Positions 2,122 to 29,916 of a stretch of DNA of 32,000 nt are shown piece after piece. Every line of letters begins with the position of its first letter. Position 1 is the stretch's first letter. The stretch comes from Synechocystis sp. PCC 6803 substr. PCC-P (lineage in GTDB: Bacteria > Cyanobacteriota > Cyanobacteriia > Cyanobacteriales > Microcystaceae), in contig NC_017039.1 of assembly GCF_000284455.1 (NCBI RefSeq), positions 1,620,001 through 1,652,000 on the forward strand, read 5' to 3'. Under the pieces are notes generated by a model. The model was not told where the DNA came from. It did not search any database and worked only from the letters and a program-made list of their open reading frames with translations. The translations under genes and the position numbers were made by a program.

Positions 2122-2157
2122 AAATAGACAGAATAATCCTACAGCAAAGCAAATTCA

Positions 2158-2724
2158 TCACCTTAGTGCTAACTCCCTTAGCCAGTGTACATAGCTTATT
2201 TTTTCACACATGAAAGCCTGTAAATAACGTAGTTTGTCTAACATTGTTGTACCTGCTTCTTTTGGGATTACCAGTAATTTTAGTATTAAATAAGCAATTA
2301 TACAGGTATAGATTTGAATCCCAATTGCATTCTCATTTTTGGCAATCAGTCTATTCAGCTTTAAGTGCATTTTTAAGAATTTCCATAAAAATTCTATTTG
2401 CCATCTTTTTTTATAAATTTCTGCTATTTTTTCATCACTAACTCCTTCTATTTCTTTACTTTCTATAGGTAAATTTGTAACCAATCTAAACTCTGAATTA
2501 TCATGGGTGAATATTACCACTCTACTCTCTATTTTATTCTTTCCAGTTCCAACCATATAGTTATCATTGGCTAATTTTTCTAGCTTTATATTATTCTTTA
2601 TTCTTAATACATGATATTTGTTATTCTCCTTTTGTAATCTCTTGATTCTCTGTAAGTCACAAAATCCTCTATCCATTACTGCTACTCCATTTTCTGGAGT
2701 CTCTTCTATTGTTTCATTCCCATA
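2158..2724 (-). pseudogene. IS4-family DDE transposase, C-terminal fragment
   Basis: It contains VMDRGF (second D) and the YREK motif. After removing ISY100 it is in frame with the N-terminal fragment: ...GQGHDNKY|GNETIEETPENG..., giving a continuous product of about 338 aa. Confidence 0.8.
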
Positions 2725-3671: not shown

Positions 3672-4123
3672 TATTTATTATCATGACCTTGTCCAAAGTG
3701 AATTACTATTCCCCCCGGAATCCCTGTTGATAAGTTAATCCCACTGAATACTTTTACCTGATGAAATCCAAGGTTCCACATCAACTTACTAGTTATGCTG
3801 ACAATGGTTGAATCGAGAGGAAATATTTCTAATTCTCCCTGCTTAATTTCCTTCCTTTTCGACAATTCCTTTTTTAAGGAAAATATTATTTCTCTAAAAA
3901 CTCCCACATCCCTTTTTTTGCTTGCCTTTGAGAATGTAGATATATCGACTGTCTCTCCTCGTAAGTTCAGTCTTTTAAACATACTCCTCATGCTTGTCTG
4001 GCTCTGGTCTAACACTAATCCTAACCAGATACTCACAAACTTAAATGTGTCTAATACTGGGTAGTCATCTTTAGGAAAATTAGATAGATAAGTTTTGACA
4101 ATATGTCCAAAATTTGATATCAT
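3672..4123 (-). pseudogene. IS4-family DDE transposase, N-terminal fragment
   Basis: It contains FPLDSTIV (first catalytic D). The frame runs into ISY100 and stops after 4 IS-derived codons (SHFN*). Confidence 0.8.
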
Positions 4124-4147
4124 CGCTTCAATTATTCTAATATTTCT

Positions 4148-4181
4148 GCCCTTTATTCTATCATTTTAAAGGGCTTTTTTT
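4148..4181 (+). terminator. Hairpin plus T-run inside the IS4 element end
   Basis: An 8-bp stem (gcccttta at 4148-4155 and taaagggc at 4167-4174) is followed by T7 at 4175-4181. It lies upstream of the minus-strand transposase start, so its role is unclear; it may block or sequester read-through. Confidence 0.25.
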
Positions 4182-4210
4182 CTCTTTATAACTATCGTTC
4201 AACACTTCTG

Positions 4211-4660
4211 ATAGAAACCTTACAACAATTGGCTGGTAGTGACTTAAAAATTTATTTGGAAAATAATGTTTTGTTGAATTACACGCAAAAACTCTATGCA
4301 CCAGAAAATCCCTTACTGATGACTGACTATCAAGGTTATTTAGAACTACAGCAGTATCTAAATTTTAACTTATTATTAGATGTTGCTCACTTAAAAGTAA
4401 GTTGTAATTCATTAGGTTTAAATTTTGATGAACAACTTGATAAACTTCTTCCCCTTTCTAATTATGTTCATTTGAGTGATAACGATGGAAAACATGACCA
4501 AAATCAAGGATTTACTCAAGACGGTGAACTCCTACATAAACTGAAAAAATATGATTTTACAGGTAAAACAATCACCTTAGAGATTTATCATCAGGTTGAA
4601 ACAATTCAAGAACAATATCAATTAATTAAACAGGAGTTAGGATTGACTCATGATAGTTAA
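4211..4660 (+). pseudogene. Sugar-phosphate isomerase/epimerase (xylose-isomerase-like TIM barrel), 5'-truncated remnant
   Basis: The frame is open right back to the IS4 end at 4210. It keeps only the C-terminal half motifs (YLENN, LLLDVAHL, HLSDNDGKHDQNQGF). The N-terminal 110-130 aa expected for this fold are missing. Confidence 0.6.
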
Positions 4661-5120
4661 CCACGATAAACAAATCAACGCCATGAGTTTGCTCGCTAAC
4701 AGTACCATTCGGCAAACCATGCAAGCCATCGATCAAGGAGGGTTAGGAACAGCCTTACTCATTGATCCTGATACCGAATATTTTGTCGGCTTAGTCACTG
4801 ATGGCGATATTCGGCGGGCTTTGCTTAAGGGATTGGGTTTAGAATCTCCAATCTCTCAGGTAAGTCGCCCTGCTTCCATAACTGCCCGTTTAGGCATGAC
4901 TCCTAGCGAAATTGCTGCCTTGTTCAGTCAGCCTGTGCGGATTGTTCCCTTACTGGATGACCAAGGAAAAGTTGCAGATATAGCCATTTTTGACAAAAGA
5001 ATTCGCTTACCTGTCGCTGAACCCTCTTTAGGCGAAAAAGAACTTGCCTATGTCAATGAATGCATGTTAACGGGCTGGGTATCGTCCGCCGGAAAATTTG
5101 TTACCCGCTTTGAAGATTTA
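4650..5120 (+). pseudogene. CBS-pair domain fused to a DegT/DnrJ/EryC1/StrS aminotransferase, 5' fragment (split by ISY100)
   Basis: It contains CBS-pair sequence (LVTDGDIRRALL...VPLLDDQGKVADI) followed by the start of the aminotransferase (LPVAEPSLGEKELAYVNECMLTGWVSSAGKFVTRFEDL). Confidence 0.85.
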
Positions 5121-6066
5121 TAGTCATTTCAATTAACGATGAGAGAATTTAATGTAAAATTATGGAGTGTACAAAATGAACAGGTTTAAACAATGGCTTA
5201 CAGTTTAGATTTAAGGCAAAGGGTAGTAGCTTATATAGAAGCTGGAGGAAAAATAACTGAGGCTTCCAAGATATATAAAATAGGAAAAGCCTCGATATAC
5301 AGATGGTTAAATAGAGTAGATTTAAGCCCAACAAAAGTAGAGCGTCGCCATAGGAAATTAGACTGGGAAGCTCTAAAAAAAGACGTAGAAGAAAATCCCG
5401 ATGCAAGATTGATAGACAGAGTCAAGAAATTTGGAGTGAGGCCGAGTGCCGTATATTACGCATTAAAGAAAATGAAAATAAACAGAAAAAAAAAGAACTA
5501 CGTTATCGAGAAAGAAACCGGGAGGAACGAGTTAAGTACTATAGAATGTTAAGAGAACTAATTAAGCTCTATGGTAGTCAAGCTATAGTTTACATAGATG
5601 AATCTGGATTCGAAGCAATCCAGGCTTGTATTTATGCCTGGTCAAAAAAAGGAAAAAAAGTTTATGGAGATAGACAAGGAAAAAGGGGAGTCAGAGAAAA
5701 TCTAGTAGCAGGGAGAAGAAAAGGAAAAAAAGATTTGATTGCGCCGATGGTTTTTACCGGGAGTTTGAATGCAGAAGGCTTTGAAGGATGGTTAAAATTA
5801 TATTTGCTACCCTCCCTCGACATTCCATCAATATTAATAATGGATAATGCTCCTATTCATCGTAAAACTGCCATTAAAGAATTGGCTAAAGAAGCAGGTC
5901 ATGAAGTTCTTTTTTTGCCGAAATATTCTCCTGATTTAAATGATATTGAGCATGACTTTAGTGCCTTGAAACGAGCTAGAATGTACGCTCCTATTGACAC
6001 GTCTCTTGATGAAATTATCCGTTCTTACTGTGGCGTTTAGCGTCTCAGCTTTATTTGAAACTACTA
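5121..6066 (+). mobile_element. ISY100-type IS630 family insertion sequence, copy 2 (946 bp, 1-bp shorter)
   Basis: It has the same inverted repeats as copy 1. A TA duplication flanks it at 5119-5120 and 6067-6068. It is in opposite orientation to copy 1. Confidence 0.9.
5193..6040 (+). pseudogene. ISY100 transposase inactivated by a -1 frameshift
   Basis: The gene is split into ORFs 5193-5552 and 5546-6040. The homopolymer is A9 at 5486-5494, against T10 (A10 in sense) at 3297-3306 in copy 1. There are also two amino-acid substitutions relative to copy 1. Confidence 0.9.
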
Positions 6067-7046
6067 TATTTGCTGAATTTTGCGGAACAAAATATGCAGT
6101 AGCAGTTAGCAGTGGTACTGCCGCGTTGCATTTGGCTCTCCTCGCCTTAAATATTGGTGCCGGTGATGAGGTAATTGTTCCAACGTTAAGTTTTATCGCT
6201 ACGGCTAATGCAGTTACTTACACAGGAGCTAAACCCATTTTTGTGGATAGTGAATGGGAAACATGGAATATTAACCCTGATTTAATTGAAGCTGCCATTA
6301 CTCCTCGCACCAAAGCCATCATGCCCGTTCATCTCTATGGACATCCTGCGAAAATGGACAAAATTCTCGATATTGCTCAACGCTATCATTTAGCTGTGAT
6401 TGAAGATGCAGCAGAAGCTCACGGCGCAACTTATCAGGGAAAAACCGTTGGAAGCTTAGGAGATTTGGGGATTTTTAGCTTTTATGGTAATAAAATTGTA
6501 ACCACAGGGGAAGGCGGCATGATAGTTACTGATGACGAAGAATTAGCACAAAAAATTCGTATTCTCAAAGACCATGGAATGTCGAAAAAACAAAGATACT
6601 GGCATCCTATTTTAGGATATAACTACCGCATAACTAATATTCAGGCAGCTTTAGGAGTTGCTCAAATGGAGCGAATTAATAAAATACCTGAGGCTAAACG
6701 ACGCATTGCCCAACTGTATGAACAAGAATTGTTACAAATTCAAGGCTTAACTTTACCTCCGCGTCAACCCTGGGCAGAAAGCGTCTTTTGGTTATACACG
6801 ATTTTAATTAATCAGGACAAACTGGAATTAAATCGAGATCAATTAATGTCGAGGTTGCAAGAAAAAGGAATTGAAACCAGACCTTTGTTTATTCCTATTC
6901 ATCGTCAGCCCATTTATAACACTCATCAGTCATTACCTGTAGCTGAATCATTAAGCAAGAATGGGTTAAGTTTACCTAGTTTTGTTACCTTGTCTAATGA
7001 AAATCTTTATCAAATTATAGACTCGATTAAAAAAGTTATCAGTTAA
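6067..7046 (+). pseudogene. DegT/DnrJ/EryC1/StrS family PLP aminotransferase (perosamine-synthetase-like), 3' fragment
   Basis: It contains FAEFCGTKYAVAVSSGTAALHLAL, DAAEAHG and SFYGNKIVTTGEGG (PLP lysine region). The part of the tracked ORF before 6067 is IS-derived. Confidence 0.85.
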
Positions 7047-7066
7047 CCCTCAAAACAAGAAAGATC

Positions 7067-8635
7067 ATGTTCATGCAGAAAATACAAGCCAAATTTTACT
7101 CTTTAAAAACTAGACTAATTAATAAATTTATTAGGCTATCTCCTTGGTGTTATGATATTTACTATCGCTATTTTACTTCTTGGCAACAAGGCTCAATTAA
7201 GGGAATATATTTACACCCATCATGGAAAAAAAATGCAAATCATGTTCTCATATTTACTCAGCGATATTGGCTAATTCATACAGCAGTGGAAAGTGCTTTT
7301 GCCAAAGAACTTCAAACACAAGGTTGGAATGTAACAGTTGTAGGATGTGATCAAGCCATAAGAACTTGTGATAATATGATGTATGGTCAAACCTTAGAAA
7401 CAAAACCCTTAACACATCAGTGTAGTTACTGCTCTTATCTATTAAAGAAACTTTGTCAAAGAGTGGGAGTGAATTATATTTCTATTCGTGAATATTTAGA
7501 AAGAAATCCTGTTCAATCTGATAGTTTGCCATACCGAGACTATGAAAAAATTGTTTGGTGTTCATGGGTAAGATTGTTAAGAAGTCAACATCCTCAAGAG
7601 CAAGAAGAATTTGCTCTGCGTCATTCTCTAGTAGAAAGTTGTCAAACAATTGATCGATTTTTAACCCATTATTTAGAACATAACAAAGTAGATCAAGTAA
7701 TTATGTTAAATGGCAAGTTTTTTGCTGAACAACTTTTGAGAGAACATTGTCACGAAAAAGATATTCCTTATATTTCCTATGAAAAGGGAACGTTTAAGGA
7801 AACTCTGGTATTTGCCAAAAATAAAGCGGCTATCCCTTATCCAACCTTAGAAAAATGGCAACAACGAAAAGATATTCCTTTAACCCAAGAACAAAAACAA
7901 CGATTGTATGGGTATCTAGAACAAAGAAAAGTGGTTGGTAATGCTGGAATTGTTCCGTTATATTCAACCATGACTGAAGATCAAAAGCAACTTAGTCTTA
8001 AGTATGGAATTGATTTAACTAAAGATATAGTAGTCCTATTTACTAATGTCATTTGGGATTCTTCTGTTGTTTTAGAAGACACGATTTTTTCTAATATTTT
8101 TGAATGGATAACTACAGTAATTAATTTTTATATAAAAAATCAGGATACCCAATTGATTATTAGAATCCATCCTGCTGAAATCAAGATATCTCCACAGCAG
8201 CAAACCCGAGACAAAGTTCAAGATTTTATTCAATCAAAATTCCCTACTTTACCTAGTAATATTATTGTGATATCACCTCAAGATGACGCGAGTCCATATA
8301 CTTTAATGAATTTGGCAAAAATTGGATTGGTTTATACTTCTACTACTGGATTAGAAATGGCTTTAAAAGAAAAACCTGTAATAGTTTGTAGTAATACTCA
8401 TTATGCCAATACAGAGTTCGTTTACACACCTTTAAATACAAAAGAATTTTTAATCTTTTTGAGTCAAAATTTGCAACTACGCAATCAACAGTTAATTTAC
8501 GCCGAAAGATATGCTTATATGCTGTATTTTGAATATATGATTCCTTATTCAAATTGGATTAATCAAAAAAATGCCAATTACAAATTCAAAACCGCTATAT
8601 CTGAAATGAATCTTCTAAGGCAGGCGGAATTATGA
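7067..8635 (+). CDS. Capsule polysaccharide biosynthesis (KpsS/KpsC-like, Capsule_synth) family protein, putative
   Basis: This is a 522-aa ORF. The segment VLFTNVIWDSSVV...LIIRIHPAE resembles the KpsS/KpsC pattern (block of hydrophobics, D, then K/R-x-HP). The assignment rests on motif recall only. Confidence 0.45.
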   Translation: MFMQKIQAKFYSLKTRLINKFIRLSPWCYDIYYRYFTSWQQGSIKGIYLHPSWKKNANHVLIFTQRYWLIHTAVESAFAKELQTQGWNVTVVGCDQAIRTCDNMMYGQTLETKPLTHQCSYCSYLLKKLCQRVGVNYISIREYLERNPVQSDSLPYRDYEKIVWCSWVRLLRSQHPQEQEEFALRHSLVESCQTIDRFLTHYLEHNKVDQVIMLNGKFFAEQLLREHCHEKDIPYISYEKGTFKETLVFAKNKAAIPYPTLEKWQQRKDIPLTQEQKQRLYGYLEQRKVVGNAGIVPLYSTMTEDQKQLSLKYGIDLTKDIVVLFTNVIWDSSVVLEDTIFSNIFEWITTVINFYIKNQDTQLIIRIHPAEIKISPQQQTRDKVQDFIQSKFPTLPSNIIVISPQDDASPYTLMNLAKIGLVYTSTTGLEMALKEKPVIVCSNTHYANTEFVYTPLNTKEFLIFLSQNLQLRNQQLIYAERYAYMLYFEYMIPYSNWINQKNANYKFKTAISEMNLLRQAEL

Positions 8636-9462
8636 ACGAAGAAAAACAACAAGAATTATTGATATCAGTCATAATAACTAACTATAATTATGACCAATTT
8701 ATTGACCAAGCTATTGAGAGTGTGTTAAGTCAAACATATTATAATTTTGAGTTAATTATTGTTGATGATGGCTCAACAGATAACTCAAGAGACGTTATTT
8801 CAAGCTATACAGATTCTCGGATAAAAGCCCTTGTAAAAAACAATGGAGGTCAAGCTTCTGCGTTTAATGCCGGGTTTGAGCAAGCAAACGGCGAAATTAT
8901 TTGCTTTTTAGATAGTGATGATTGGTGGAAACCAGAGAAACTAGAAACTATTATAAGATGGCATTATTTTATTAATAAAGACTATGCCATATTCCAGCAC
9001 GTTTTAGATGTTTGGTATGAAGGAAAAACTCGTCCCTATAAGCACATATTGCCCAGTGGTGATTGTTTTGCTGAAATGAAAAAAGTTAAGAAGCTCGATT
9101 TTTTCGTACCGACATCAGGACTATCATTTCCTAAAAAAATATTAGATAGGATATTTCCAATTCCTATCAAGTTTATAATTGCAGCAGATTCCTACATCAT
9201 GAGAACCGCTTGTGTATTTAACATGGTATATTCTATTCCAAAATCTTTAGGTTTTTATCGTCAACATGATAATACTGTTTTTCTTAATCCCGATTTTGAC
9301 CTGCAGCCATTTCTTAAAGAAATTTTAATTCCTGAGTTGAATCAATTTTATCAAAAATACAGGATAAACTATCAAATTGAAATATCAGACTACAATTTCA
9401 ATGAGCGGAAAAAGAATAAAAAACAAAAAATTTTTGAATATCTAAAAAAAGTCTTTTTTTAA
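8632..9462 (+). CDS. GT2 family glycosyltransferase
   Basis: It contains ISVIITNYNYDQFIDQAIESVLSQTY..ELIIVDDGSTDNS and the DSDD motif. Its start overlaps the upstream stop by 4 nt. Confidence 0.85.
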   Translation: MNEEKQQELLISVIITNYNYDQFIDQAIESVLSQTYYNFELIIVDDGSTDNSRDVISSYTDSRIKALVKNNGGQASAFNAGFEQANGEIICFLDSDDWWKPEKLETIIRWHYFINKDYAIFQHVLDVWYEGKTRPYKHILPSGDCFAEMKKVKKLDFFVPTSGLSFPKKILDRIFPIPIKFIIAADSYIMRTACVFNMVYSIPKSLGFYRQHDNTVFLNPDFDLQPFLKEILIPELNQFYQKYRINYQIEISDYNFNERKKNKKQKIFEYLKKVFF

Positions 9463-9475
9463 AGGAGGCATCAAC

Positions 9476-10268
9476 TTGTTACTTTCTATGCTAATCACAA
9501 AACAATTATTCTTGTCTATAAAAAGCAAAGTTAAATTTTATTTATGGTATCTAAAATATGCCCTTAAACTGGCTTCTTTTAAAAACATTCATCAGGGAGA
9601 GGATTGTTTTATTATTGGGAATGGTCCCTCTCTCAATAAAATGGATTTGGCAAAACTAAATCAATATTATACCTTCGGACTCAATAAGATTTACTTGATT
9701 TTTGAGCGAGTTGATTTAAGTTTAAGTTATTATGTAACAGTTAATCGTTTGGTCATCGAACAATGTCAAAATGAAATTCAGAATTTTCGTTGTCCTTGCT
9801 TTCTTGAATTTACAAAATCAAAAGATATTATACCCTTCAAAGAGAATATTTATCGTTTAGCTACAACGGGAAGACCTTATATGTTTCAAACAGATATTAC
9901 CCAAAAAATATGTGAAGGAAATACTGTAACTTATGTTGCCATGCAGCTTGCCTACTATATGGGGTTCAAAAGAGTCTTTTTGATCGGAGTAGATCACAAC
10001 TTTAAATATTCAGGAAATCCTAATGAATCCTAATGAAAAGCAAATTTTAAATTCCGAAGACCCAAATCATTTTGATTCCCGATATTTTAGTAACCAAGAA
10101 TGGAATTTGCCTGACTTGGAAGCCTCCGAACTAGCCTTTCACCTTGCAAATTTTCATTTCAAGCGAGATAGCAGAAAAATTTATGATGCAACCTTAGAAG
10201 GAAAACTTAATATTTTCGACAAAATTAGCTTTGAACAGGCACTTTCCATGGCGAAACCAAAAAATTAA
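9476..10268 (+). pseudogene. DUF115/Maf-like, GT42 (Cst-II)-like putative CMP-ulosonic-acid transferase, frameshifted
   Basis: It contains IIGNGPSLNKMD, FGLNKIY and VAMQLAYYMGFKRVFLIGVDHNF. It is a paralog of 16504-17298. A 10-bp tandem duplication at 10016-10035 splits it into ORFs 9476-10033 and 10023-10268. Confidence 0.8.
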
Positions 10269-10292
10269 AAATCATCATCAGCGTTATATTTA

Positions 10293-11558
10293 GTGGACAT
10301 GAAATATCCTAGGATTTTAATTATTAATCCAGTTCCTTTTAATCATATTAATGCTAGCGGTATAACAACTAGTAACCTTTTTCGAGGTTGGCCGCTAGAC
10401 AAAATTGCACAGATTTATAGCCATGAGAATGACAAATATATTGATCATAAAATTTGTCAGAACTATTTACATATAGTATCTAAATCTTTAATTCCTGAAA
10501 AGCTTACTTTGGAGGAGCTTAACAAGCCTCTTCAACGAATTTCTGATTTGCTTAGTGGTAATTCTTTAACTTTGGGGGGGTGGCTTGCTAATCCTAGTCC
10601 TATCTTAAAATGGATAAAAAATTTTAATCCGGAAATTATATATGCGCGTCCCTTAGATACACCTTATTTTTATTGGCGTTTACCCTACCAAATTTCAAGA
10701 AACCAAAATATACCTTATGCCATTCATATTATGGATGATTGGCCAGCACGCTATGGGCAAAGAAGCGGAATAATCGACAATTTTATCCGAAAACCAGCAC
10801 TACAGAAACAACTCAAAAGATTAATAGAAAATTCTAGTCTCAATATTGGAATTTCAGAGCAAATGTGCAAAGCATTTGAAGAACGTTATAAAAGGCCATT
10901 CGTTACATTTCATAACTGTATAGAAATAGACAATTTTATAAATCAAGGCAAGACAGATAAACCTTCTGATAACTTACAAGTAGTTTATACTGGTTCGGTA
11001 ACCGAGGATAAAGAACTAGGAAGCTTAATTGATATAAAAGACGTTATCCTATCGCTTAACACAAAAGGTTATCAAATTACATTAACTATTTATGCTCCTT
11101 CCATATATCAAGAAATTATTGATCAAAAACTTGCCATACCAAATGTAATTAAATATGGAGGATTTTTTCCCCCTGAACTTAAGCCCAATATCCTAGCAAA
11201 TGCAGATTTGCTATTATTGCCACTGAATTTTGACGTCAAAAGTATTATCTATACTCAATACTCGTTCCAATCAAAGTTGCCCGAATATATGGCATCTGGT
11301 ACGCCAATTTTACTGTATGGGCCAAATAATAATCCTAATATAGAATATGCTAAAAAGAATGACTTTGGATTCATTGTTACTGAAAATAATCAGAAAGAAC
11401 TAACGAATTTTTTTTTACGTATCATTAAAGATCAGAAACTAAGAGAACATCAAGGTAAAATGGGACAAAGATTAGCTTTTGCCGACTTCAACGCTGAAGT
11501 GATTAGGGAAAGATTTCATAAATCACTTTGTCAAATCGCCCGAAACAAACTAGGTTAA
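10293..11558 (+). CDS. GT4/GT1-type (GT-B) glycosyltransferase
   Basis: This is a 421-aa ORF starting at GTG 10293 or ATG 10299. The C-terminal half has a GT-B nucleotide-sugar binding pattern (VVYTGSV..., SKLPEYMASGTPILLYGP). Confidence 0.65.
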   Translation: MDMKYPRILIINPVPFNHINASGITTSNLFRGWPLDKIAQIYSHENDKYIDHKICQNYLHIVSKSLIPEKLTLEELNKPLQRISDLLSGNSLTLGGWLANPSPILKWIKNFNPEIIYARPLDTPYFYWRLPYQISRNQNIPYAIHIMDDWPARYGQRSGIIDNFIRKPALQKQLKRLIENSSLNIGISEQMCKAFEERYKRPFVTFHNCIEIDNFINQGKTDKPSDNLQVVYTGSVTEDKELGSLIDIKDVILSLNTKGYQITLTIYAPSIYQEIIDQKLAIPNVIKYGGFFPPELKPNILANADLLLLPLNFDVKSIIYTQYSFQSKLPEYMASGTPILLYGPNNNPNIEYAKKNDFGFIVTENNQKELTNFFLRIIKDQKLREHQGKMGQRLAFADFNAEVIRERFHKSLCQIARNKLG

Positions 11559-11565
11559 TCGTTTT

Positions 11566-12402
11566 ATGAGTTTTTCTGAACATCATCTTGTTTCTATCTA
11601 TCCCTTTCCCGCTCTTAGACCCGTCTTAATTGATGTCGGAAGCCATCAGGGGGGAGTGTCCCAGTTATTTGCCCAAAAAAACTGGAAAATCATTGCGTTT
11701 GAGCCTGAAACAAAAAACCGACAAGTCTTTGATAAAAATCTATCAGGCTTTGATAATGTCACCTGTATCCCAAAAGCCGTCTCTAATGTTACCGGTGATA
11801 AAGTCCCCTTTTATACCAGTCAAGAACACTTTGGCATCCATACCCTTAAACCCTTTCATCCAACCCATAAATTTGCCTACGAGGTAGAAACAATCCGTTT
11901 AGACGATGCGTTAAATGCCTTAAAAATAGACCAAGTTACTTTTCTAAAGATTGATATTGAAGGAGCTGATTTTTTTGCTCTGCAAGGCTTTGACTGGAAG
12001 AAATATCATCCAGAAGTCGTTATGGTCGAGTTTATGGACAACCGATCCCAGCCAAACTTTAGCTACACTCACCACGATATGGTCAACTACATGACAGAGC
12101 GTGGTTACATCACCTACATTTCGGAATGGGATGTTATCAAAGAGTATGGACGCTCCGGACAGACTAGCGAGCCTCATCGTTGGCTACAATGTGTCCGTTA
12201 TCCCCTTAACCATGAACCAGCCTGGGGGAATCTGATCTTTATTACCCAGGGGAACGAATCAAAATTCGAGCAAACGTTAGCCCAATATCTAGAAAAATCG
12301 AAACATCAAGACCGTTGGGAAAAACTAAAGCAAATCTTTAAAAAATTGCCTGGAGTTCATGCTCTCTATCAGAAATTAAAATCAGGGTTTAAATCAATCT
12401 AG
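11566..12402 (+). CDS. FkbM family methyltransferase
   Basis: It contains LIDVGSHQGGVSQLF...IIAFEP...FLKIDIEGADFFALQG, typical of the Methyltransf_21/FkbM family. Confidence 0.75.
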   Translation: MSFSEHHLVSIYPFPALRPVLIDVGSHQGGVSQLFAQKNWKIIAFEPETKNRQVFDKNLSGFDNVTCIPKAVSNVTGDKVPFYTSQEHFGIHTLKPFHPTHKFAYEVETIRLDDALNALKIDQVTFLKIDIEGADFFALQGFDWKKYHPEVVMVEFMDNRSQPNFSYTHHDMVNYMTERGYITYISEWDVIKEYGRSGQTSEPHRWLQCVRYPLNHEPAWGNLIFITQGNESKFEQTLAQYLEKSKHQDRWEKLKQIFKKLPGVHALYQKLKSGFKSI

Positions 12403-12449
12403 TCAATTATTGAATTATTCTCTAAATTATTCACTCTTTTCACACCAGA

Positions 12450-13442
12450 ATGCCCCTTGTCTCCCTAATTATTCGTTGTTACAACGAAGAAAAACACATT
12501 GGCCGCTTGCTCAGCGGCGTTATGCAGCAACAGGGCATCGACTACGAAATTATTATCGTGGACTCCGGCTCAACCGACGCCACCGTCAGCATTGCCCAAC
12601 GCTATCCCATTCAACTCATCAGCATCGACCCCCAAAACTTTTCCTTTGGGCGCTCCCTCAATCTCGGATGCCAACAAGCTAGCGGTGAATATCTAGTTTT
12701 TGCCAGTGCCCACGTCTATCCCGTTTACCAAGACTGGCTTAAACAACTGATTGCCCCCCTGCAAACCAATCCCCAGATTGCCCTCAGCTACGGCAAACAA
12801 CGGGGCAACAACCAAACCCAATTTTCCGAACATCAAATCTTTGCCCAGTGGTTCCCCGACCAAGCTCAGATTCCCCAAACCACTCCCTTTTGTAACAACG
12901 CCAATGCCGCCATTCGCCGTGACCTGTGGCAAAAATATCCCTACAACGAAGACCTGACCGGCCTAGAAGACCTGGACTGGGCCAAACGTCTTATGCAAGC
13001 CGGTTATCAAATCGCCTACGTCCCCGACGCCGAAATTATCCATGTCCACCAAGAAACCCCTCAACGGGTCAGAAACCGCTACCGTCGAGAGGCGATCGCC
13101 TTAAAACAAATTTTTCCAGAACAAACCTTCAGCCTAGGGGATTTTGTGCGCCTTACTGTCAGTAATACCCTGAGCGATTACTATTACGCTTGGCAAAGCC
13201 AACAACTAATGACCCAACTATGGGCCATTCCCCAATTCCGGCTCATGCAATTCTGGGGAACCTATCAGGGCTATCACCAAAACAATTCCCTCAATCAGCA
13301 ACTGCGCCAAACCTTCTATTATCCCCGCCCCATCAACACCATCACCCCCAACGTCCCCAGCAAAGACGCACTCAAAATCAACTACGCCCAAAGCGATACC
13401 CAGCTAGTGCCTGACCCCTCTCCTCCTTCCCCCCATCAATGA
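12450..13442 (+). CDS. GT2 family glycosyltransferase
   Basis: It contains VSLIIRCYNEEKHIGRLLSGVMQQQGIDYEIIIVDSGSTDATV and a later EDLDW motif. It is the first gene of a C3-rich, HIP1-containing block. Confidence 0.8.
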   Translation: MPLVSLIIRCYNEEKHIGRLLSGVMQQQGIDYEIIIVDSGSTDATVSIAQRYPIQLISIDPQNFSFGRSLNLGCQQASGEYLVFASAHVYPVYQDWLKQLIAPLQTNPQIALSYGKQRGNNQTQFSEHQIFAQWFPDQAQIPQTTPFCNNANAAIRRDLWQKYPYNEDLTGLEDLDWAKRLMQAGYQIAYVPDAEIIHVHQETPQRVRNRYRREAIALKQIFPEQTFSLGDFVRLTVSNTLSDYYYAWQSQQLMTQLWAIPQFRLMQFWGTYQGYHQNNSLNQQLRQTFYYPRPINTITPNVPSKDALKINYAQSDTQLVPDPSPPSPHQ

Positions 13443-16503: not shown

Positions 16504-17298
16504 ATGACGAAAAACACAACCGTAGAGCGTTTGCCAGACGCTAATCCTTATCGGTATGGTTTAGCAGAAATTTGGCGCAGACTTAAATGGGATCTGACTC
16601 CTGAATCATGGCGATCACGCCACAGACTTAAGCAGTATGAAAATCAATATGTAGGTCAAAAAGCTGTCATTGTTTGTAATGGCCCCAGCTTGTTACAAAC
16701 AGATTTTTCATTGCTTAAAAATATTTATACTTTTGGTCTAAACAAAATCAACTTACTTTTTGATAAATCTGATTTTCGCCCATCTTGTATTGTTGCGGTA
16801 AACCCCTTGGTAATCGAGCAAAATGCAAGTTTTTATAACAACACCACAATCCCCCTTTTCATCAACAGTAAGCACACATCCCTGATTAAACCTAGAGAAA
16901 ACATTATTTTCCTTCACTCAACAGAACAAATTAAATTTGCTCAAGATTGTTCAATCAGCTTATTTCATGGATCAACTGTAACCTTTGTCGCTATGCAGTT
17001 GGCATTTTATTTTGGATTTTCAAAAGTTGCTCTTATTGGATGCGATCACTCATTTAGAATGACAGGTTTACCTAATGAACAAGTCACTACGGAGCAAGAA
17101 GACCCCAATCATTTTGACCCTAAATATTTTGCAAATGGTGTTCAGTGGCACTTGCCAGACCTCTTAGGAAGTGAAGTAGGATATACTATGGCTAAGTTTC
17201 ATTTTGAACACAATAATCGAGCAATTTACAATGCGACAGAAGGTGGAAAGCTAGAAATTTTTCCTCGATTGTCGCTTACAGATTTCATAGACTTGTAA
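16504..17298 (+). CDS. DUF115/Maf-like, GT42 (Cst-II)-like putative CMP-ulosonic-acid transferase (intact paralog)
   Basis: It contains VIVCNGPSLLQTD, FGLNKIN and FVAMQLAFYFGFSKVALIGCDHSF. Motif order parallels Campylobacter Cst-II (GNGPSL ... CN ... ALGYKEIYLSGID), recalled from memory. Confidence 0.7.
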   Translation: MTKNTTVERLPDANPYRYGLAEIWRRLKWDLTPESWRSRHRLKQYENQYVGQKAVIVCNGPSLLQTDFSLLKNIYTFGLNKINLLFDKSDFRPSCIVAVNPLVIEQNASFYNNTTIPLFINSKHTSLIKPRENIIFLHSTEQIKFAQDCSISLFHGSTVTFVAMQLAFYFGFSKVALIGCDHSFRMTGLPNEQVTTEQEDPNHFDPKYFANGVQWHLPDLLGSEVGYTMAKFHFEHNNRAIYNATEGGKLEIFPRLSLTDFIDL

Positions 17299-17408
17299 TT
17301 CAGAAAAACTAATTGAATTTCCACATTTATCTTAATACAAAGAATTAGTAGATTCCCAAGATACCTAGCGTAAACTTCTCAATTGAAGACAAAGAATATT
17401 ATTAATTC

Positions 17409-18275
17409 ATGTTTTTCATGCAAAATACTAAGTCTATTTATATTATCATTCCAGTTCATAATCGTCGAGAAGTTACATTACAATGCTTGACAACTCTAAA
17501 GCTTAACGAGGATTTAGATCAGTATAGGATTGTTGTTGTTGATGACGACTCAACCGATGGCACAAGAGAAGCTGTTAACGCTCAGTTTCCACAGGTAATT
17601 GTTTTAGAAGGAGATGGTAATTTATGGTGGACAGGAGCAGTCAAGATGGGAATGAAATACGCCTACGAACAGGGTGGTGAATTATTTATCTTGCTCAATG
17701 ATGATTGTTATCCTCAAATGGGAACTATTTCTAAATTACTAAAAAAAATCGACGAAAATCCTAATTCAGTTATTGGCGTTCAATGCCTTGATCCAAAAAG
17801 CAAAGAACCAAGCTATGGCGGAATCCTTACAAATAATAATAAATTACAAGTCGTGAAAATTTTCCATACTTTTAATAGCATGACTGATTGCGACGCTTTA
17901 AATGGTAATTTGCTGGCAATTCCTCGTAATATTGTTGATAAAGTTGGCTTTCCTGATGCAAAACGATTTCCTCATCATTTTGGAGATTTTGTTTACACTA
18001 ATCGAATCAAAAAAGAAGGCTATAAACTTTTTTTATGTAATGATATAGTGGCGTTATGCGAATACCATTATAATGGCTTGTCAAAAAAGTCCAGCCAGTT
18101 TAACCGTTTTCAAGAGCTATTTACTCCTACATCTCAATTTTACTGGAAAACAGAAATGAAGGGTTATATCGAGTTATTTGGTATTAAGGGCATAATTATA
18201 TATCTACATAAGCGTTGTTTATTGTCCTCATTAAAAGTGATTTTTTTACTTCTCGATCAAAAACTAACTTTGTGA
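17409..18275 (+). CDS. GT2 family glycosyltransferase
   Basis: It contains IYIIIPVHNRREVTLQCLTTL...IVVVDDDSTDGT and LLNDD. Confidence 0.8.
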   Translation: MFFMQNTKSIYIIIPVHNRREVTLQCLTTLKLNEDLDQYRIVVVDDDSTDGTREAVNAQFPQVIVLEGDGNLWWTGAVKMGMKYAYEQGGELFILLNDDCYPQMGTISKLLKKIDENPNSVIGVQCLDPKSKEPSYGGILTNNNKLQVVKIFHTFNSMTDCDALNGNLLAIPRNIVDKVGFPDAKRFPHHFGDFVYTNRIKKEGYKLFLCNDIVALCEYHYNGLSKKSSQFNRFQELFTPTSQFYWKTEMKGYIELFGIKGIIIYLHKRCLLSSLKVIFLLLDQKLTL

Positions 18276-18304
18276 TACCCCCTACTACAAATCCCTATTC
18301 TATC

Positions 18305-18400
18305 TCCACCGCATCAAAAGCTTAATCAAAGAAATCGGCAAAACTTGGCTACCCTAGCCCCAATTAACCTTGTCTGGCCCATAATTAAACATAGAACTAC
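18305..18400 (+). repeat. Intergenic repeat copy R1
   Basis: The sequence is tccaccgcatcaaaa...cggcaaaacttggctaccctagccccaattaac...atagaactac. It shares most positions with R2 and R3 and contains the hairpin ggcta-ccc-tagcc. Confidence 0.7.
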
Positions 18401-18696
18401 ATCGATTATGGCTCCTGATGTTAACATCAGAGAGAATAATAGAAACCGCATTCCCTCCTAGTAATCCGTCCGATTATTTTAGCAATCCGGTCTTTGCTGA
18501 CCTAGGCAAATTAGGAGAACTATTATCATGAATGAGCTATTGGAATTTACATCGCTAGTCTGGACTATCCTAACGTCAGTGGTGCTGAACACCTAGAGCT
18601 ATTAAATATTCGGGATCAAATTGGAGAAATTGTTAACATATTTAGCCTACGAGAAAAAAGAAAATTACGAGAAGCAGATAAAAAATGTTAATTAAC

Positions 18697-18840
18697 ATGG
18701 CAACTACTTATCAAAAAATTTCTCGCTTTATTGATTTATCTAACTATCGAAATGAGCATGAGATTTCCCCCCATCAATGGTGGTGGTATTTAGATGTTTT
18801 ATCCTTTCTTCCTGATGACATTAGCTCCAATGTAGCCTGA
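18697..18840 (+). CDS. Small hypothetical protein (47 aa)
   Basis: It runs from ATG to TGA and encodes MATTYQKISRFIDLSNYRNEHEISPHQWWWYLDVLSFLPDDISSNVA. It is below the ORF-track cutoff and I recognise no family. Confidence 0.3.
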   Translation: MATTYQKISRFIDLSNYRNEHEISPHQWWWYLDVLSFLPDDISSNVA

Positions 18841-18874
18841 TCAAAAAAACTTAAAACCTAGACCTTTTAGCATT

Positions 18875-18952
18875 GGCGATCAGCAAACTCAGTAAAACCT
18901 GGCTACCCTAGCTCCAATTAACTCTCCCTGTCCCAAGATTAAGATAGAACTG
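18875..18952 (+). repeat. Intergenic repeat copy R2
   Basis: The sequence is ggcgatcagcaaactcagtaaaacctggctaccctagctccaattaactc...agatagaactgc. It ends 20 nt upstream of the 18972 start codon. Confidence 0.7.
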
Positions 18953-18971
18953 CTCTCTCGTTTCCCGTCTC

Positions 18972-19547
18972 ATGGCCACCACCCCCCAAGAAGTCTGGCA
19001 ACTCCTCGGCGAACTTGCCCAGGCCCAAAAAGAAACCGAACGCCTCCTCAAAGAACAGTCCCAAGAAGCGGATCGTCGTTTCCAAGAAACTGAACGACTC
19101 TTAAAAGAACAAAGCCAACGCCTACTTGGCCAACTTGGTAACCGCTTGGGAGAGTTTGTCGAATACCAAGTGCGACCTGCCGCCGTTAGACTGTTCCGGG
19201 AACGGGGCATTGACGTTCATGAAATTTCCACCGACCTATCCGTTCAAAAAAATGGTCAAGGGCTAGAAATTGATCTGTTAGTAGTTAATGGCAATGAGGC
19301 GATCGCCATCGAAGTGAAAAGTAAACTAGACAAGGAAGATGTAGATGAACACCTAGAACGAATGAGTAAATTTAAACGACTCCTACCCCGCTATCAACCT
19401 CTCAAAATACTAGGAGCCGTCGCCGCCATGGTAGTGCCCAACCAGATTGCCAGTTACGCCTACCGTAAAGGACTCTTTGTTATTGCCCAATCTGGCGACG
19501 ATCTGATGATTTTAAATGATGCTAAATTCCGCCCTAAAGCTTGGTAG
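18972..19547 (+). CDS. PD-(D/E)XK nuclease-fold protein with coiled-coil N-terminus (DUF3782-like)
   Basis: EIDLLVVNGNEAIAIEVKS fits a D...E-x-K restriction-endonuclease-like core. The N-terminus carries a duplicated ETERLLKEQSQ unit. Confidence 0.6.
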   Translation: MATTPQEVWQLLGELAQAQKETERLLKEQSQEADRRFQETERLLKEQSQRLLGQLGNRLGEFVEYQVRPAAVRLFRERGIDVHEISTDLSVQKNGQGLEIDLLVVNGNEAIAIEVKSKLDKEDVDEHLERMSKFKRLLPRYQPLKILGAVAAMVVPNQIASYAYRKGLFVIAQSGDDLMILNDAKFRPKAW

Positions 19548-27118: not shown

Positions 27119-27191
27119 AATATGTGGGAAGAAAATAAATCTGGTCTTATTGTTACGGCAGGCTTTTTGAGCAGAATTCAGGGTTTAGCCA

Positions 27192-27365
27192 ATGAATCTC
27201 GACACCATTCAGCAAGATATTGCAGAACTTCCGCCTGAAGCCCAAGAAATTGTTTTTGACTTAGTCAAGAGTCTTAAAAAAGATCATGTTGCAAATTTGC
27301 CGGTCTCTTCCACAGACTGGTCAGATTTTATTGGTTGCATGGATGCAGAATCTGAATCTTTCTAG
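27192..27365 (+). pseudogene. VapB-like antitoxin, apparently frameshifted near its 3' end
   Basis: The 57-codon ORF encodes MNLDTIQQDIAELPPEAQEIVFDLVKSLKK...DFIGCMDAESESF*. The +1 frame continues NLNLSRKYKAYLHHELEKKYDHC* to 27420. That tail overlaps the PIN gene start by 14 nt, the usual toxin-antitoxin arrangement. Confidence 0.5.
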
Positions 27366-27406
27366 GAAATATAAAGCTTATTTGCATCACGAATTAGAAA
27401 AAAAAT

Positions 27407-27691
27407 ATGATCATTGTTGATACTGGCTTTTGGCTTGCCCTAGCTAATAAAAATGATGAGTTTCATATTCCGGCAGTGAATCTGTTTTATTCCCTACAAG
27501 ACGAGCAGTTTATAACAACTTGGTGTGTTATGACTGAAACTTGCTATCTACTGCAAAATCGGGTTGGAATTCATGCACCGCAGAGATTTATTAGAAAAAT
27601 TGGCTTAGGAAAACTCAATATCTTTGACATTAAACCTAGCCATTGTTCTCGCATTGAGCAACTTATGACGAAATATCGTGACTTGCTATAG
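27407..27691 (+). pseudogene. vapC: PIN-domain (VapC-like) toxin, C-terminal third missing
   Basis: It has MIIVDTGFWLAL (first acidic residue) and TTWCVMTETCYLL (conserved E/T). The frame stops at ...KYRDLL*, before the expected distal acidic residues. At 94 aa it is short of the roughly 130 aa usual for PIN toxins. Confidence 0.6.
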
Positions 27692-27708
27692 GGCTTCGTG
27701 TTTATAAT

Positions 27709-28467
27709 CTAGTTGCTTACCTCTGTATTTGAGCTTCGGAGTTTTTTTATTTCCTCTTTAGAAAAACCCAAAGAATGGAACTGGGATAAGTGTCTTTCTA
27801 TGAATTTCTGTCCACTGCTTGTTAAAATGTCAATATTTTGATTAAGTAATTTAATATCAGAATTAAGTTCTAGCAAAAAATTATGTGCTGTATTGATTAT
27901 GTTTGCTAGGCGTTGATCAACTGCATTAATTAAGATTTTTTTTGATAATTCATTATCTCCAAATTCTTTTTCAATACGCATTAAATCCTTCATAGCCTCC
28001 TGCATGGCTGCATCCTGTAATTCTTTATATTTTATAGTTCTTTCATATACTAAGTCTTGAGCTTGTTTTCGTAGACCAAGCTGGATGCTCCCAATCATAT
28101 TAATTGCATCAACATTTAACTGAGTTAGCTCCCGTTGTAGTCGCATCATCGCTTCAGATACGGCTTTCATTCTTTCAAATTCAGAATCTTTTCTGCATTC
28201 CTCAATTTCAGCTATTATTCTTACAATTTCAGTTTCTTTCTTTATTTGTAAGTCGATATCTGCTTCTTGCCTTTTTAACTCAAGATTGAGATTATACTCT
28301 TTTTCCTTTTGTTTGTTTTCTGCGTCAATGTTTATTTTGCCAATTTCTCTTTGATATTCCCATCTACGTAGAGGCTCACTGGCCCAATCCGTTGCAAGTT
28401 TAACTGGCGCGTAAATGATATCATCAAGTTTGTCAAACATTCCAAATATTTTTGATGTAATACCCAT
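27709..28467 (-). CDS. Hypothetical all-helical/coiled-coil protein (252 aa), last gene of the AT-rich operon
   Basis: A long ORF in stop-rich DNA of about 30% GC. GAGG lies 6-9 nt upstream of the ATG, and the ATG lies 1 nt after the upstream stop. I recognise no domain. Confidence 0.7.
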   Translation of the reverse strand: MGITSKIFGMFDKLDDIIYAPVKLATDWASEPLRRWEYQREIGKINIDAENKQKEKEYNLNLELKRQEADIDLQIKKETEIVRIIAEIEECRKDSEFERMKAVSEAMMRLQRELTQLNVDAINMIGSIQLGLRKQAQDLVYERTIKYKELQDAAMQEAMKDLMRIEKEFGDNELSKKILINAVDQRLANIINTAHNFLLELNSDIKLLNQNIDILTSSGQKFIERHLSQFHSLGFSKEEIKKLRSSNTEVSN

Positions 28468-28468
28468 T

Positions 28469-28942
28469 TTAACCTCTCAGTTTGTTAATTTCCTTTTCAA
28501 AAAGGATTTTGTCTTTTTCACATTGTAATTGCAATCGATTGTAAGTTTGTTTCGATTTATCTCCAATTTTTAATATTTCATCCAAGGCATTCATCTTTAT
28601 ATCTAATATTTCCAAGACTAATGAAGATTGATTATTGTTGATATTTGGCAAGCTATACGCATCTACAAGTAGCAAGAAAATTTTTACATAGATGGATGGA
28701 TTCAAATAATAATTTTCATCAGAAAAATACCTATTTTCTTTCAGCAAATGCCAATATGAGTTGAGCCAAACGATGAAATACTTTTCAATTGAAAGGGAAA
28801 TTAACTGTTTATCTTCCCTATATCTAAAGCTCGGTAAGTAAATAGTAGGCTCTTCATTCAAAAAATCATCAAGAAGATTTTTCCGCATAGCTCTAAGTGA
28901 GCTTAAAATGATTTGATAATCTTCCTGAATATGATTATTCAT
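28469..28942 (-). CDS. Hypothetical protein (157 aa), AT-rich operon
   Basis: The start overlaps the upstream stop (ATGAATAA). The core is aromatic-rich (YFIVWLNSYWHLLKENRYF). I recognise no domain. Confidence 0.65.
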   Translation of the reverse strand: MNNHIQEDYQIILSSLRAMRKNLLDDFLNEEPTIYLPSFRYREDKQLISLSIEKYFIVWLNSYWHLLKENRYFSDENYYLNPSIYVKIFLLLVDAYSLPNINNNQSSLVLEILDIKMNALDEILKIGDKSKQTYNRLQLQCEKDKILFEKEINKLRG

Positions 28943-29471
28943 CGTTAAGATTATCTGGTGCTTTTGCTTGAGTTGATTTTTTTAGTTCTTTTTTAGCCTC
29001 ACTTTTTAAGATTCCAATTGTATCAATTACTTGATTGGCTGCTAATTCAGAACTAACATCAAGGCTTTTCGTATAGCTTTTAACTAACTCTTGAATCCAA
29101 GCTGATGCAATGTCGGCATCAACTCCAGAATTTTTTAGAGTTTCACAAACTTCTCGTAGTCCATAGGTGAAAAACTGCGAACGCTCACGTCGTAAATCTT
29201 CTTGAATAGAATTAGCAAATTTTATTTCGTCTTTATGTTGCTGTAAAAGTTCAAGATAATGTTTTTCATATTCATACAAAATGGATAGTCTATTATCGTT
29301 TTCAATTTCCGTAATTAAATTATAAATCTCCTTAAGTAATATTTGTTTCTTGTTGCTATCTAGCTCAATCTTCTCAATACAAGCGTTAAGTCTTTCTTCG
29401 ATTTTTTTGATTTCCATATTTTTGCTTGATTTGTGTAAAATTACCTGGTCTGAAGTCAAATTATTGGTCAC
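28935..29471 (-). CDS. Hypothetical helical protein (178 aa from GTG 29471, or 160 aa from ATG 29417), AT-rich operon
   Basis: A long ORF in AT-rich DNA, tightly packed with its neighbours. I recognise no domain. Confidence 0.65.
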   Translation of the reverse strand: MTNNLTSDQVILHKSSKNMEIKKIEERLNACIEKIELDSNKKQILLKEIYNLITEIENDNRLSILYEYEKHYLELLQQHKDEIKFANSIQEDLRRERSQFFTYGLREVCETLKNSGVDADIASAWIQELVKSYTKSLDVSSELAANQVIDTIGILKSEAKKELKKSTQAKAPDNLNDE

Positions 29472-29473
29472 AT

Positions 29474-29593
29474 CTACATCAGCTCGAGTCCTTTTTTGAG
29501 AATAAACTTCGTGATCTTTACTTTTTTAAGACTTTCTTTGATTTCTTGTTGTATTTTAGATAAAAAATTAATCACTGGTTCATAGTCGGACAT
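29474..29593 (-). CDS. Small basic helical ORF (39 aa), possible first gene of the AT-rich operon
   Basis: It runs from ATG at 29593 to TAG at 29474-29476, which lies 2 nt before the GTG of the next ORF. It encodes MSDYEPVINFLSKIQQEIKESLKKVKITKFILKKGLELM. It is below the ORF-track cutoff. Confidence 0.35.
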   Translation of the reverse strand: MSDYEPVINFLSKIQQEIKESLKKVKITKFILKKGLELM

Positions 29594-29916
29594 CAGTGTA
29601 GAATTTTGAGACCTTTTCGTACAGTGATTCTAAGGTAAAAAGTAGAGTTCTAAAAACTTTGTTACTTAGAAAACTGCGTTTACGAGATTTTTTCGTCCCC
29701 CCTATATGAACTAAGTATTATAACTATTCTATGTTTATCGACTTTGGTCTCCAATTTACTGGAAGTAATTTTAACTTATTTTTACTGATCATCTTAAAGA
29801 TAGTAAAAAAACTTTACAAATTAATATCTACTGTCTTCTCGGCTAGAGTCAAACCTTACACTGAGTTGGTTAGAATACATTAAGAAATATTTCACTCATT
29901 CCTGAGAAAAATTACT

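Follow-up and report, generated by a model that had tools for sequence, protein, structure and literature searches.

Do the AT-rich genes between an RND transporter gene and tldD of Synechocystis sp. PCC 6803 form a system of their own, and what could such a system be for? The genes lie at positions 27,692 to 29,916 of the stretch analysed here, which is 32,000 nucleotides of contig NC_017039.1 of substr. PCC-P (positions 1,620,001 to 1,652,000 of the forward strand) and is called the window below. An earlier note, made from the DNA letters alone, had read the segment as a horizontally acquired operon of coupled genes for helical proteins with no recognisable family. Exact-sequence look-up named the three larger open reading frames (ORFs) as sll1239, sll1240 and sll1241, and their products are called A, B and C herein. 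The three genes constitute a real, expressed operon with coupled translation, and their products belong to three undescribed families. The families co-occur in a near-obligate manner, keep a fixed gene order and are frequently transferred as a bare unit. The trio is a real, previously undescribed system that lends itself to experiment, and it probably serves either defence or addiction. The answer that we tentatively favour, at slightly less than an even chance, is that sll1239-41 is a self-contained, mobile three-protein module that presumably functions in biological conflict, with addiction as the main rival.

Conservation of the three protein families

Homolog searches with C gave 198 proteins with 45-62% identity across phyla (typically 50-60%), with relatives in Gemmatimonadota, Desulfobacterota, Nitrosomonas, Pseudomonas, Candidatus Ozemobacteraceae and filamentous cyanobacteria. 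Family A has 123 homologs, in which the core with the pattern 'LYEYEKHYLELIKEYKEEIKF..LQEDLRRERSQFF' is kept. B had looked like an orphan when a word-indexed search returned three matches. This was overturned by exhaustive phmmer and profile hidden Markov model (HMM) searches, and phmmer gave 117 clusters of B, all of about 150-165 amino acids (aa). The trio was located at 39 loci in species-representative genomes of Cyanobacteria, Desulfobacterota, Latescibacterota, Beta- and Gammaproteobacteria, Campylobacterota, Bacteroidota, Firmicutes, Rhodothermota and Chloroflexota, and it spans at least ten bacterial phyla.

Among 40 non-redundant loci with room upstream of C, profile HMMs placed A, B and C on one strand in 38. 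The order was A-B-C in 37 of these 38 loci and C-A-B in one, and the median gaps over 27 loci were 2 nt between A and B and 1 nt between B and C. The co-occurrence and kept order that the earlier note looked to in other genomes were thus found. B was the least conserved member in all 27 loci (median identity 29% for B, 47% for A and 52% for C). A and C were also considered as possible paralogues, and this was rejected at an HHalign probability of 0.2%.

Several individual loci depart from the common form. The C-A-B order belongs to Insolitispirillum (L029:9980-11755). Two tandem A genes are present in Desulfamplus (L012:5610-6698), and in a Leptolyngbya metagenome-assembled genome (MAG) A is split in two ORFs, probably by a frameshift (L028:8973-9504). 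Some A members carry the label 'nickel transporter' in public records (WP_251301786.1; P0236 of a Desulfamplus MAG; E. coli L046:3424-4035). The label looks like a propagated misannotation, because neither transmembrane (TM) segments nor metal-binding motifs are found in the sequence.

Gene limits and translational coupling

The features of the operon and its surroundings are collected in Table 1. The earlier note had counted four minus-strand ORFs of 39, 178, 157 and 252 codons as one operon; their positions were confirmed, and the number of genes was reduced to three. The junctions were read correctly: the start of B lies over the stop of A in an 8-nt overlap (ATGAATAA), and the ATG of C follows 1 nt past the stop of B (TAA-A-ATG) with GAGAGG upstream. 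The junction ahead of the long form of A reads TAG-AT-GTG, where the 39-codon ORF stops two bases ahead of the GTG. The operon is taken as three genes because the 39-codon ORF has no homolog among 53 related loci and lies outside the DNA block common with Synechocystis CS-94, and this ORF was rejected as a fourth gene.

The DNA homology between the PCC 6803 and CS-94 cassettes runs from 29423 to 27734 only, at 75.7% identity. The block starts inside A, at an internal ATG, and stops within C. The GTG start of A was also found to be unsupported, since the CS-94 homology sets in at 29423, RefSeq begins a 160-aa protein at the ATG at 29420, and residues 1-17 of the long form were modelled as disordered, with a predicted local distance difference test (pLDDT) score below 50. 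These observations indicate that the unit consists of three genes and that A likely starts at 29420. So the roughly 500 nt upstream of A are, from this comparison, host- or copy-specific. The search for promoter-like sites upstream of the operon gave none beyond chance, and Rfam gave no match there. Around the cassette, flanking repeats, target-site duplications, terminators and Rfam RNAs were sought, and nothing above chance was found.

Open frames of this length had been judged improbable by chance in such DNA, and simulation agrees. In 2,000 composition-matched sequences with dinucleotide content preserved, the third-longest frame never exceeded 120 codons; the observed value is 170.

Table 1 Positions of the operon, its neighbours and the GTPase-linked operons (window coordinates unless a locus is given).
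Feature	Position	Strand	Remarks
Gene A (sll1239)	28935..29420	-	supported coding sequence, 160 aa; ATG at 29420; RefSeq form
Gene A, long form of older annotation	28935-29471	-	178 aa; GTG start at 29471
Gene B (sll1240)	28469..28942	-	ORF, 157 aa
Gene C (sll1241)	27709..28467	-	ORF, 252 aa
39-codon ORF	29474-29593	-	no homology support; within the 5' region
Operon 5' untranslated and promoter region	29421..29916	-	divergent from tldD
Low-G+C, HIP1-free island	27119..29916		between RND transporter gene and tldD; from composition profile and HIP1 positions
VapB-like ORF	27192-27365	+	57 aa; borders the cassette, not in the conserved trio
Truncated PIN/VapC gene	27407-27691	+	94 aa; PIN PF01850, E = 4e-6, profile 1-88 of 120
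GTPase-Y-A-B-C operons	L034:5042-9092; L036:4842-8189; L043:4179-6198; L042:6884-9146 and 10715-12928		

Composition, left boundary and mobility

The G+C content, measured in 300-nt windows, is 0.28-0.35 across the tract and 0.47-0.55 in both flanks, as the earlier note had reported from its own counts. The cassette as a whole has 31.4% G+C. In the composition profile the low-G+C tract begins at about 27120, and therefore the VapB-like/PIN pair is also inside it. No HIP1 site (GCGATCGC) occurs between 26901 and 29975. The absence itself was confirmed, and its weight as evidence was not: the gap of 3,081 nt is barely longer than two other gaps, of 2,872 and 2,843 nt, in the part of the window that carries HIP1. 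The missing HIP1 sites are therefore weak evidence alone, and the composition is the stronger signal.

The left edge adjoins a truncated PIN gene, as had been noticed, with 17 nt between this gene and the stop codon of C and with positions 1-88 of the 120 Pfam PIN positions matched. The truncation falls just ahead of the expected third acidic residue. Judged by this reading of its sequence the truncated toxin probably lacks activity, and the gene may have been cut short when the cassette arrived. The arrangement of the VapB-like ORF and the truncated PIN gene was unchanged in 24 of the 24 contigs with an identical TldD that were read. A Synechocystis relative with an empty site was not found, and all contigs with an identical TldD carry the cassette.

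The proposed horizontal acquisition is supported by the comparison of hosts. The cassette is AT-rich in nearly all of them (31-40% G+C in hosts of 50-67%), it occupies a different site in CS-94, and it has copies on ColE1-type plasmids. In CS-94 it is inserted between a tRNA methyltransferase and a nucleotidyltransferase gene, there are no mobility genes nearby, and the homology is confined to the ORFs. On 15 ColE1-type plasmids of E. coli and Salmonella with sizes of 3.4-9.3 kb, among them pO111-110512_6 and pSe-Kan, the trio is essentially the only cargo; hosts include E. coli O111 and Salmonella Typhimurium. On pO111-110512_6 (AP019767) the cassette takes up nt 3300-5423, roughly 2.1 kb. 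In pSe-Kan the trio is located in place of the mob genes, not alongside them (PMC9282650). Only 10 of 5,426 complete E. coli genomes have the trio, always plasmid-borne. It was found in none of 50,697 isolate phage genomes and in 1 of 2.9 million viral contigs (IMG/VR). The trio moves between chromosomes and small plasmids with no genes beyond its own three.

Two further parts of the window deviate in composition. A second, larger low-G+C tract (30-39%) extends from 2000 to 12000 with about 10 ORFs of 155-522 aa, and the window has no HIP1 site before 13092; this tract is probably another horizontally acquired island. A shorter dip (35-37%) is seen at 17000-19000 amid otherwise native-looking sequence.

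Architecture of the proteins and search for relatives

A, B and C are cytoplasmic, all-helical proteins without catalytic or transmembrane motifs. The maximum mean hydropathy over 19 residues (Kyte-Doolittle) is 1.32, therefore the products have no TM segments, as the earlier note had judged. Cys and His are scarce, and catalytic motifs were found in none of the three.

C is composed of an N-terminal motif (residues ~10-40), a charged linker (~41-75) and a conserved helical hairpin (~76-231). In the AlphaFold2 model of C (pLDDT 77.6), a helix of about 157 residues (12-168) folds back on a helix of about 59 residues (173-231). The N-terminal motif, MFDKLDDIIYxPIxLxTDWAREPLK, is poorly modelled, and P21, E31, P32 and R40 are invariant. 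The E/K-rich linker ranges from near-absent (in 235-aa proteins) to about 160 additional residues that contain internal repeats, and judged from sequence it looks like a variable-length single-helix spacer. This variation is seen in columns 45-160 of the C alignment A1, at L027:9460-10693, and in P0010 and P0078.

In A, a variable N-terminal part precedes a conserved helical core, about 105 aa long, at the C-terminus. Its model, built for the 178-aa form (pLDDT 76), shows two paired helices at 39-114 (76 residues) and 119-168 (50 residues). The N-terminus is swappable: it can be a short helix, an IF2_N-like module, a Zn-ribbon or a GIY-YIG-like domain of about 100 aa. Small IF2_N-like N-terminal domains, possibly nucleic-acid-binding, occur on some members of both A and B, and the variants at L001:5241-5999 and in P0154, P0157, P0158, P0164 and their relatives hint at nucleic-acid or partner binding.

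The GIY-YIG-like motif order is found in the N-terminal ~100 aa of about 20% of family A (P0159-P0232), reading GVFIFAGK ... YFIGET ... H ... E.LI..Y.P.IN, and is not present in the Synechocystis A. A true GIY-YIG nuclease domain is no more than a lead: UvrC GIY-YIG could be aligned end to end but only at E = 1.5, and Pfam gave no match. The domain may be an inactive derivative, because Phe stands in place of the first Tyr and the canonical Arg has not been kept.

No known family was recognised for the window proteins in Pfam, NCBIfam, PADLOC or PHROGs at a significant level, in agreement with the first reading. When scanned singly, 43 members of C and 40 of A gave no significant match, and neither did A, B and C of the E. 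coli plasmid. Profile searches of the Protein Data Bank (PDB) with all three families gave no relative. The best Foldseek matches in the PDB were not significant (E = 0.45 for C and 3.2 for A), nor was the best match of C in BFVD (E = 0.078). Literature searches by protein accession and keyword returned no description of the trio, and those by locus tag and plasmid name returned only expression tables and '3 ORFs of unknown function'. The trio belongs to none of the families or systems with which it was compared, and its components are best regarded as new in kind; its function is what we infer below.

Expression and regulation

In RNA sequencing of a lexA-disrupted mutant, sll1239, sll1240 and sll1241 were up 7.7-, 10.3- and 7.6-fold in one replicate and 11.9-, 11.4- and 12.5-fold in the other (PMC4759255). 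This joint rise indicates that the operon genes are expressed and co-regulated. Under nitrogen, phosphorus and sulfur limitation, sll1240 is among the most induced genes (PMC12589917). Heat-shock genes are derepressed in the lexA mutant too (PMC4759255), and the LexA-associated motif TTTTGWTNAC proposed in the same study is absent upstream of the operon. For these two reasons the LexA control of the operon may be indirect.

Just past the right end of the window, sll1236 was derepressed 15.6- and 4.9-fold in the lexA mutant (PMC4759255). The neighbourhood of sll1239-41 may share its regulation with this gene.

The earlier note had made its claim of a new system depend on family matches, conservation and expression. 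No match to a known family was found, the genes are conserved elsewhere, and they are expressed.

Genomic neighbours and the GTPase-linked variant

In the main clade no recurrent neighbour was detected; 137 flanking proteins from 24 loci match 145 Pfam families. Integrases, HigB, HicA and DUF4258/DUF2283 are frequent. Other conflict-type neighbours are Z1/DUF4420/AIPR, ScoMcrA_N, DUF4238 and a CAP12/Pycsar-type TIR, and further neighbours are AbiEii-like AAA_21, Schlafen/AlbA_2, SNF2 and a WHH/colicin-DNase toxin paired with a SUKH immunity protein. The defence-island setting suggested by the earlier note was therefore supported in part: conflict and mobility genes are frequent, but the neighbours are mixed and include housekeeping genes. 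In three filamentous cyanobacteria, large same-strand genes (~950-1,370 aa) are located directly downstream of the trio (L006:10793-20229, L007:10793-18789 and L018:11160-18075). These could be a neighbouring defence system, because the SNF2, DEAD and Helicase_C matches in the pooled Pfam results may be theirs.

A different picture was obtained in a distant clade, in which C is about 30% identical, from Ruminococcus, Oscillospiraceae, Clostridia, Bacteroides and Alistipes. Here a GTPase, often duplicated, and a protein called Y recur immediately upstream of the trio on the same strand, giving the operon order DO-GTPase-like GTPase(s), Y, A, B and C. The GTPases match PF19975/PF19993 (DO-GTPase1/2) with 26-31 bits against a cut-off of 27, and their GxxGxGKT, DYxGG and TKxD motifs (G1, G3 and G4) are intact. 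They were found only in this clade (L034, L036, L037, L040, L042 and L043), and L042 has two tandem GTPase-Y sets. Y has 300-470 aa with a conserved opening region, 'MKVYPLIYSRT...GVR..IFSVGDY.VYGG'. Five copies had no Pfam match at E <= 0.01, a sixth had a weak, sub-threshold match to PRS2_N, and no PDB relative was found. The DO-GTPase family was defined by Kaur, Burroughs, Iyer and Aravind (eLife 2020; PMC7159879), who surveyed NTP-dependent conflict systems computationally and found it paired with GAP1 and with either GASH or FNIII proteins.

Possible function of the trio

The pattern of an AT-rich, plasmid-riding and widely kept unit is typical of conflict systems. Under the favoured reading, A, B and C would join in a heteromeric complex of coiled coils, as suggested by their coupling, co-inheritance and coiled-coil architecture. 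The complex would serve biological conflict, as anti-phage immunity of the abortive-infection type. We infer this from the rare but pan-phylum distribution, the foreign composition, the carriage on plasmids and islands, the fast-evolving B with the modular A N-terminus, and the near-absence from phages together with the GTPase link. The conserved hairpin proteins A and C might act as effector or scaffold, and the fast-evolving B and the swappable A N-terminus might provide specificity or restraint. Upon a trigger, the complex might rearrange or polymerise, and the cell or the invader might be arrested. The complex might engage the membrane by way of the amphipathic motif that is conserved at the N-terminus of C. 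In Firmicutes and Bacteroidota, paired DO-GTPase-like switches would control the trio. The role in defence, abortive infection or membrane stress that the earlier note had put forward is made more plausible mainly by this GTPase-linked variant.

A bolder version is possible, though we hold it with clear doubt. In this version the trio would represent an enzyme-free class of immune or abortive-infection systems, a trigger-responsive complex of three coiled-coil proteins that acts on the membrane via a PspA-alpha0-like N-terminus of C. It would work on its own in Proteobacteria and Cyanobacteria, whereas paired GTPases would gate it in Firmicutes and Bacteroidota.

Several results weigh against a role in conflict. 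The induction under nutrient limitation, together with a lexA mutant that derepresses heat-shock genes, has the look of a general stress response. The cassette of CS-94 is surrounded by housekeeping genes, and the neighbourhoods overall are heterogeneous, with housekeeping genes included and no recurring partner. PADLOC-DB v2.0.0, which excludes systems described after 2023, gave no credible match for the versions from Synechocystis, the E. coli plasmid, a gammaproteobacterial metagenome locus (L004) and Ruminococcus/Bacteroides; its best match was a coiled-coil segment of MTase_I at E = 1e-4. The literature yielded no later-described (post-2023) defence system that matches the trio. The structure models are of moderate confidence (pLDDT 76-78, predicted template-modelling score ~0.4). 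The GTPase link is confined to the ~30%-identity clade with scores at the Pfam threshold, and the DO-GTPase systems are themselves only computational predictions (PMC7159879).

The main rival shares most of this evidence. The trio would then be an addiction module, similar to toxin-antitoxin (TA) systems, that stabilises its carrier plasmid or island, for example with C as the toxic and B as the neutralising component. Post-segregational killing would explain how the trio persists as the sole cargo of the small ColE1 plasmids, which have no partition systems, and the tight gene coupling, the TA genes adjoining in the window and elsewhere, the rare but wide spread and the one fast-evolving subunit beside conserved ones are all in line with it. 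However, three conserved components rather than two are present in 38 of the 40 loci, no recognisable toxin or DNA-binding antitoxin domain is found, and the GTPase-gated variant is hard to square with a simple TA pair. We consider the addiction reading unlikely. TA and defence functions are not mutually exclusive.

A PspA/Vipp1-like envelope-stress module, in which C would bind stressed membranes by its amphipathic N-terminal motif and polymerise by its hairpin, with A and B as partners or regulators, is a still less probable account. It was prompted by the earlier note's impression of a PspA/Vipp1/ESCRT-III-type N-terminus, and membership of these families did not survive Pfam, Foldseek and HHalign, which left only a weak resemblance over 29 N-terminal residues, genuine as a local similarity. 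Residues 9-37 of C align to residues 2-30 of Vipp1/PspA with 28% identity and a pairwise E = 0.024, but at an HHalign probability of 2% and with no alignment past these residues. By virtue of an 'AEDP' motif the N-terminus of C resembles helix alpha0, and C of the E. coli plasmid begins with 'MGIFS', as does E. coli PspA; yet the invariant proline at position 21 breaks the putative helix. Set against the ESCRT-III fold, in which alpha3-alpha5 come after an alpha1-alpha2 hairpin, the model of C is a hairpin of helices 12-168 and 173-231. Vipp1 is among the top Foldseek matches of C, none of them significant, with E = 0.45-1.9 and template-modelling scores of 0.2-0.3 alongside the generic hairpins of colicin, LSD1 and SMC. 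At E <= 0.1 Pfam gave no family at all for any of 43 aligned family members and neither PspA_IM30 nor Snf7 for C itself, and the C family profile found no PspA or Vipp1 chain among PDB sequences. The genes are stress-induced, and some psp operons have been seen to include DO-GTPases (PMC11237479), but the rarity in E. coli, the foreign composition and the plasmid and island spread misfit a housekeeping stress role.

It is very improbable that the trio serves the mobile element itself rather than host defence, through plasmid or integrative and conjugative element maintenance, establishment or anti-defence. Plasmid and island carriage and the IF2_N-like domains would agree with such a task. However, the bare trio is also present among chromosomal housekeeping genes without other element genes nearby, it has no conserved relaxase, replication or partition partner, and on pSe-Kan it replaces the mob genes instead of accompanying them. 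An origin as decayed structural or scaffold genes of a phage (prophage remnants), or as chance ORFs in AT-rich DNA, has a negligible probability: the best BFVD match of C is a podovirus 'internal virion protein B' (12% identity) and A has a weak PHROGs match to a head-decoration family (E = 0.0025), but the PHROGs, phage-genome, viral-contig and BFVD searches effectively refute a phage origin, phage genes do not flank the trio, and the families are conserved in many phyla, expressed and encoded by ORFs far longer than chance allows.

The trio matters in several ways. Three families without a detectable relative form a module that is intact over at least ten phyla. As it holds no enzyme, nucleotide-binding or membrane-spanning domain, the trio likely works by assembly or sequestration, a poorly explored mode of action. 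The natural E. coli plasmid copy is a block of about 2 kb, and therefore the hypothesis is directly testable. The GTPase-linked variant would be the first handle on the targets of DO-GTPase-like switches. For cyanobacterial biology, three 'unknown protein' genes, of which sll1240 belongs to those most strongly induced under nutrient limitation, are given a context.

Comparison with known systems

Type II TA systems, such as the adjacent VapBC, resemble the trio in being small, coupled and mobile, in their presence on small plasmids and in adjoining TA loci. They differ in that the trio has three conserved genes and much larger helical proteins. No toxin domain or DNA-binding antitoxin is present in A, B or C, and only the adjoining truncated PIN gene qualifies.

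The best, non-significant Foldseek matches of the C hairpin are podovirus internal virion protein B (T7 gp14-like), colicin R-domains and SMC arms. With E of at least 0.078 and identities of 9-14%, these matches reflect the generic resemblance of coiled-coil hairpins. PspA and Vipp1 share with the trio an all-helical long hairpin and stress inducibility, and the first ~30 residues of C bear a resemblance to their helix alpha0 by the 'AEDP' motif. C differs from them in the unequal lengths of its hairpin arms (157 and 59 residues) and in its invariant Pro21, and the trio, unlike a core gene, is mobile, rare and AT-rich.

The multi-gene anti-phage systems of PADLOC-DB v2.0.0 match none of A, B or C with any model. 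Like the trio, these systems are compact operons with a patchy, island- or plasmid-borne distribution and one rapidly evolving component.

The DO-GTPase systems (PMC7159879) were compared as well. They differ from the trio in that no GTPase is present in the window cassette or the main-clade loci. In Pfam, no GASH or FNIII match was obtained for A, B and C of the window and of E. coli, and Y had no GAP1 match in a library whose inclusion of GAP1 models is unconfirmed. The distant-clade trio, in turn, has one or two GTPases directly upstream, and its operons have in common with the DO-GTPase systems constant components combined with all-helical, non-enzymatic partners.

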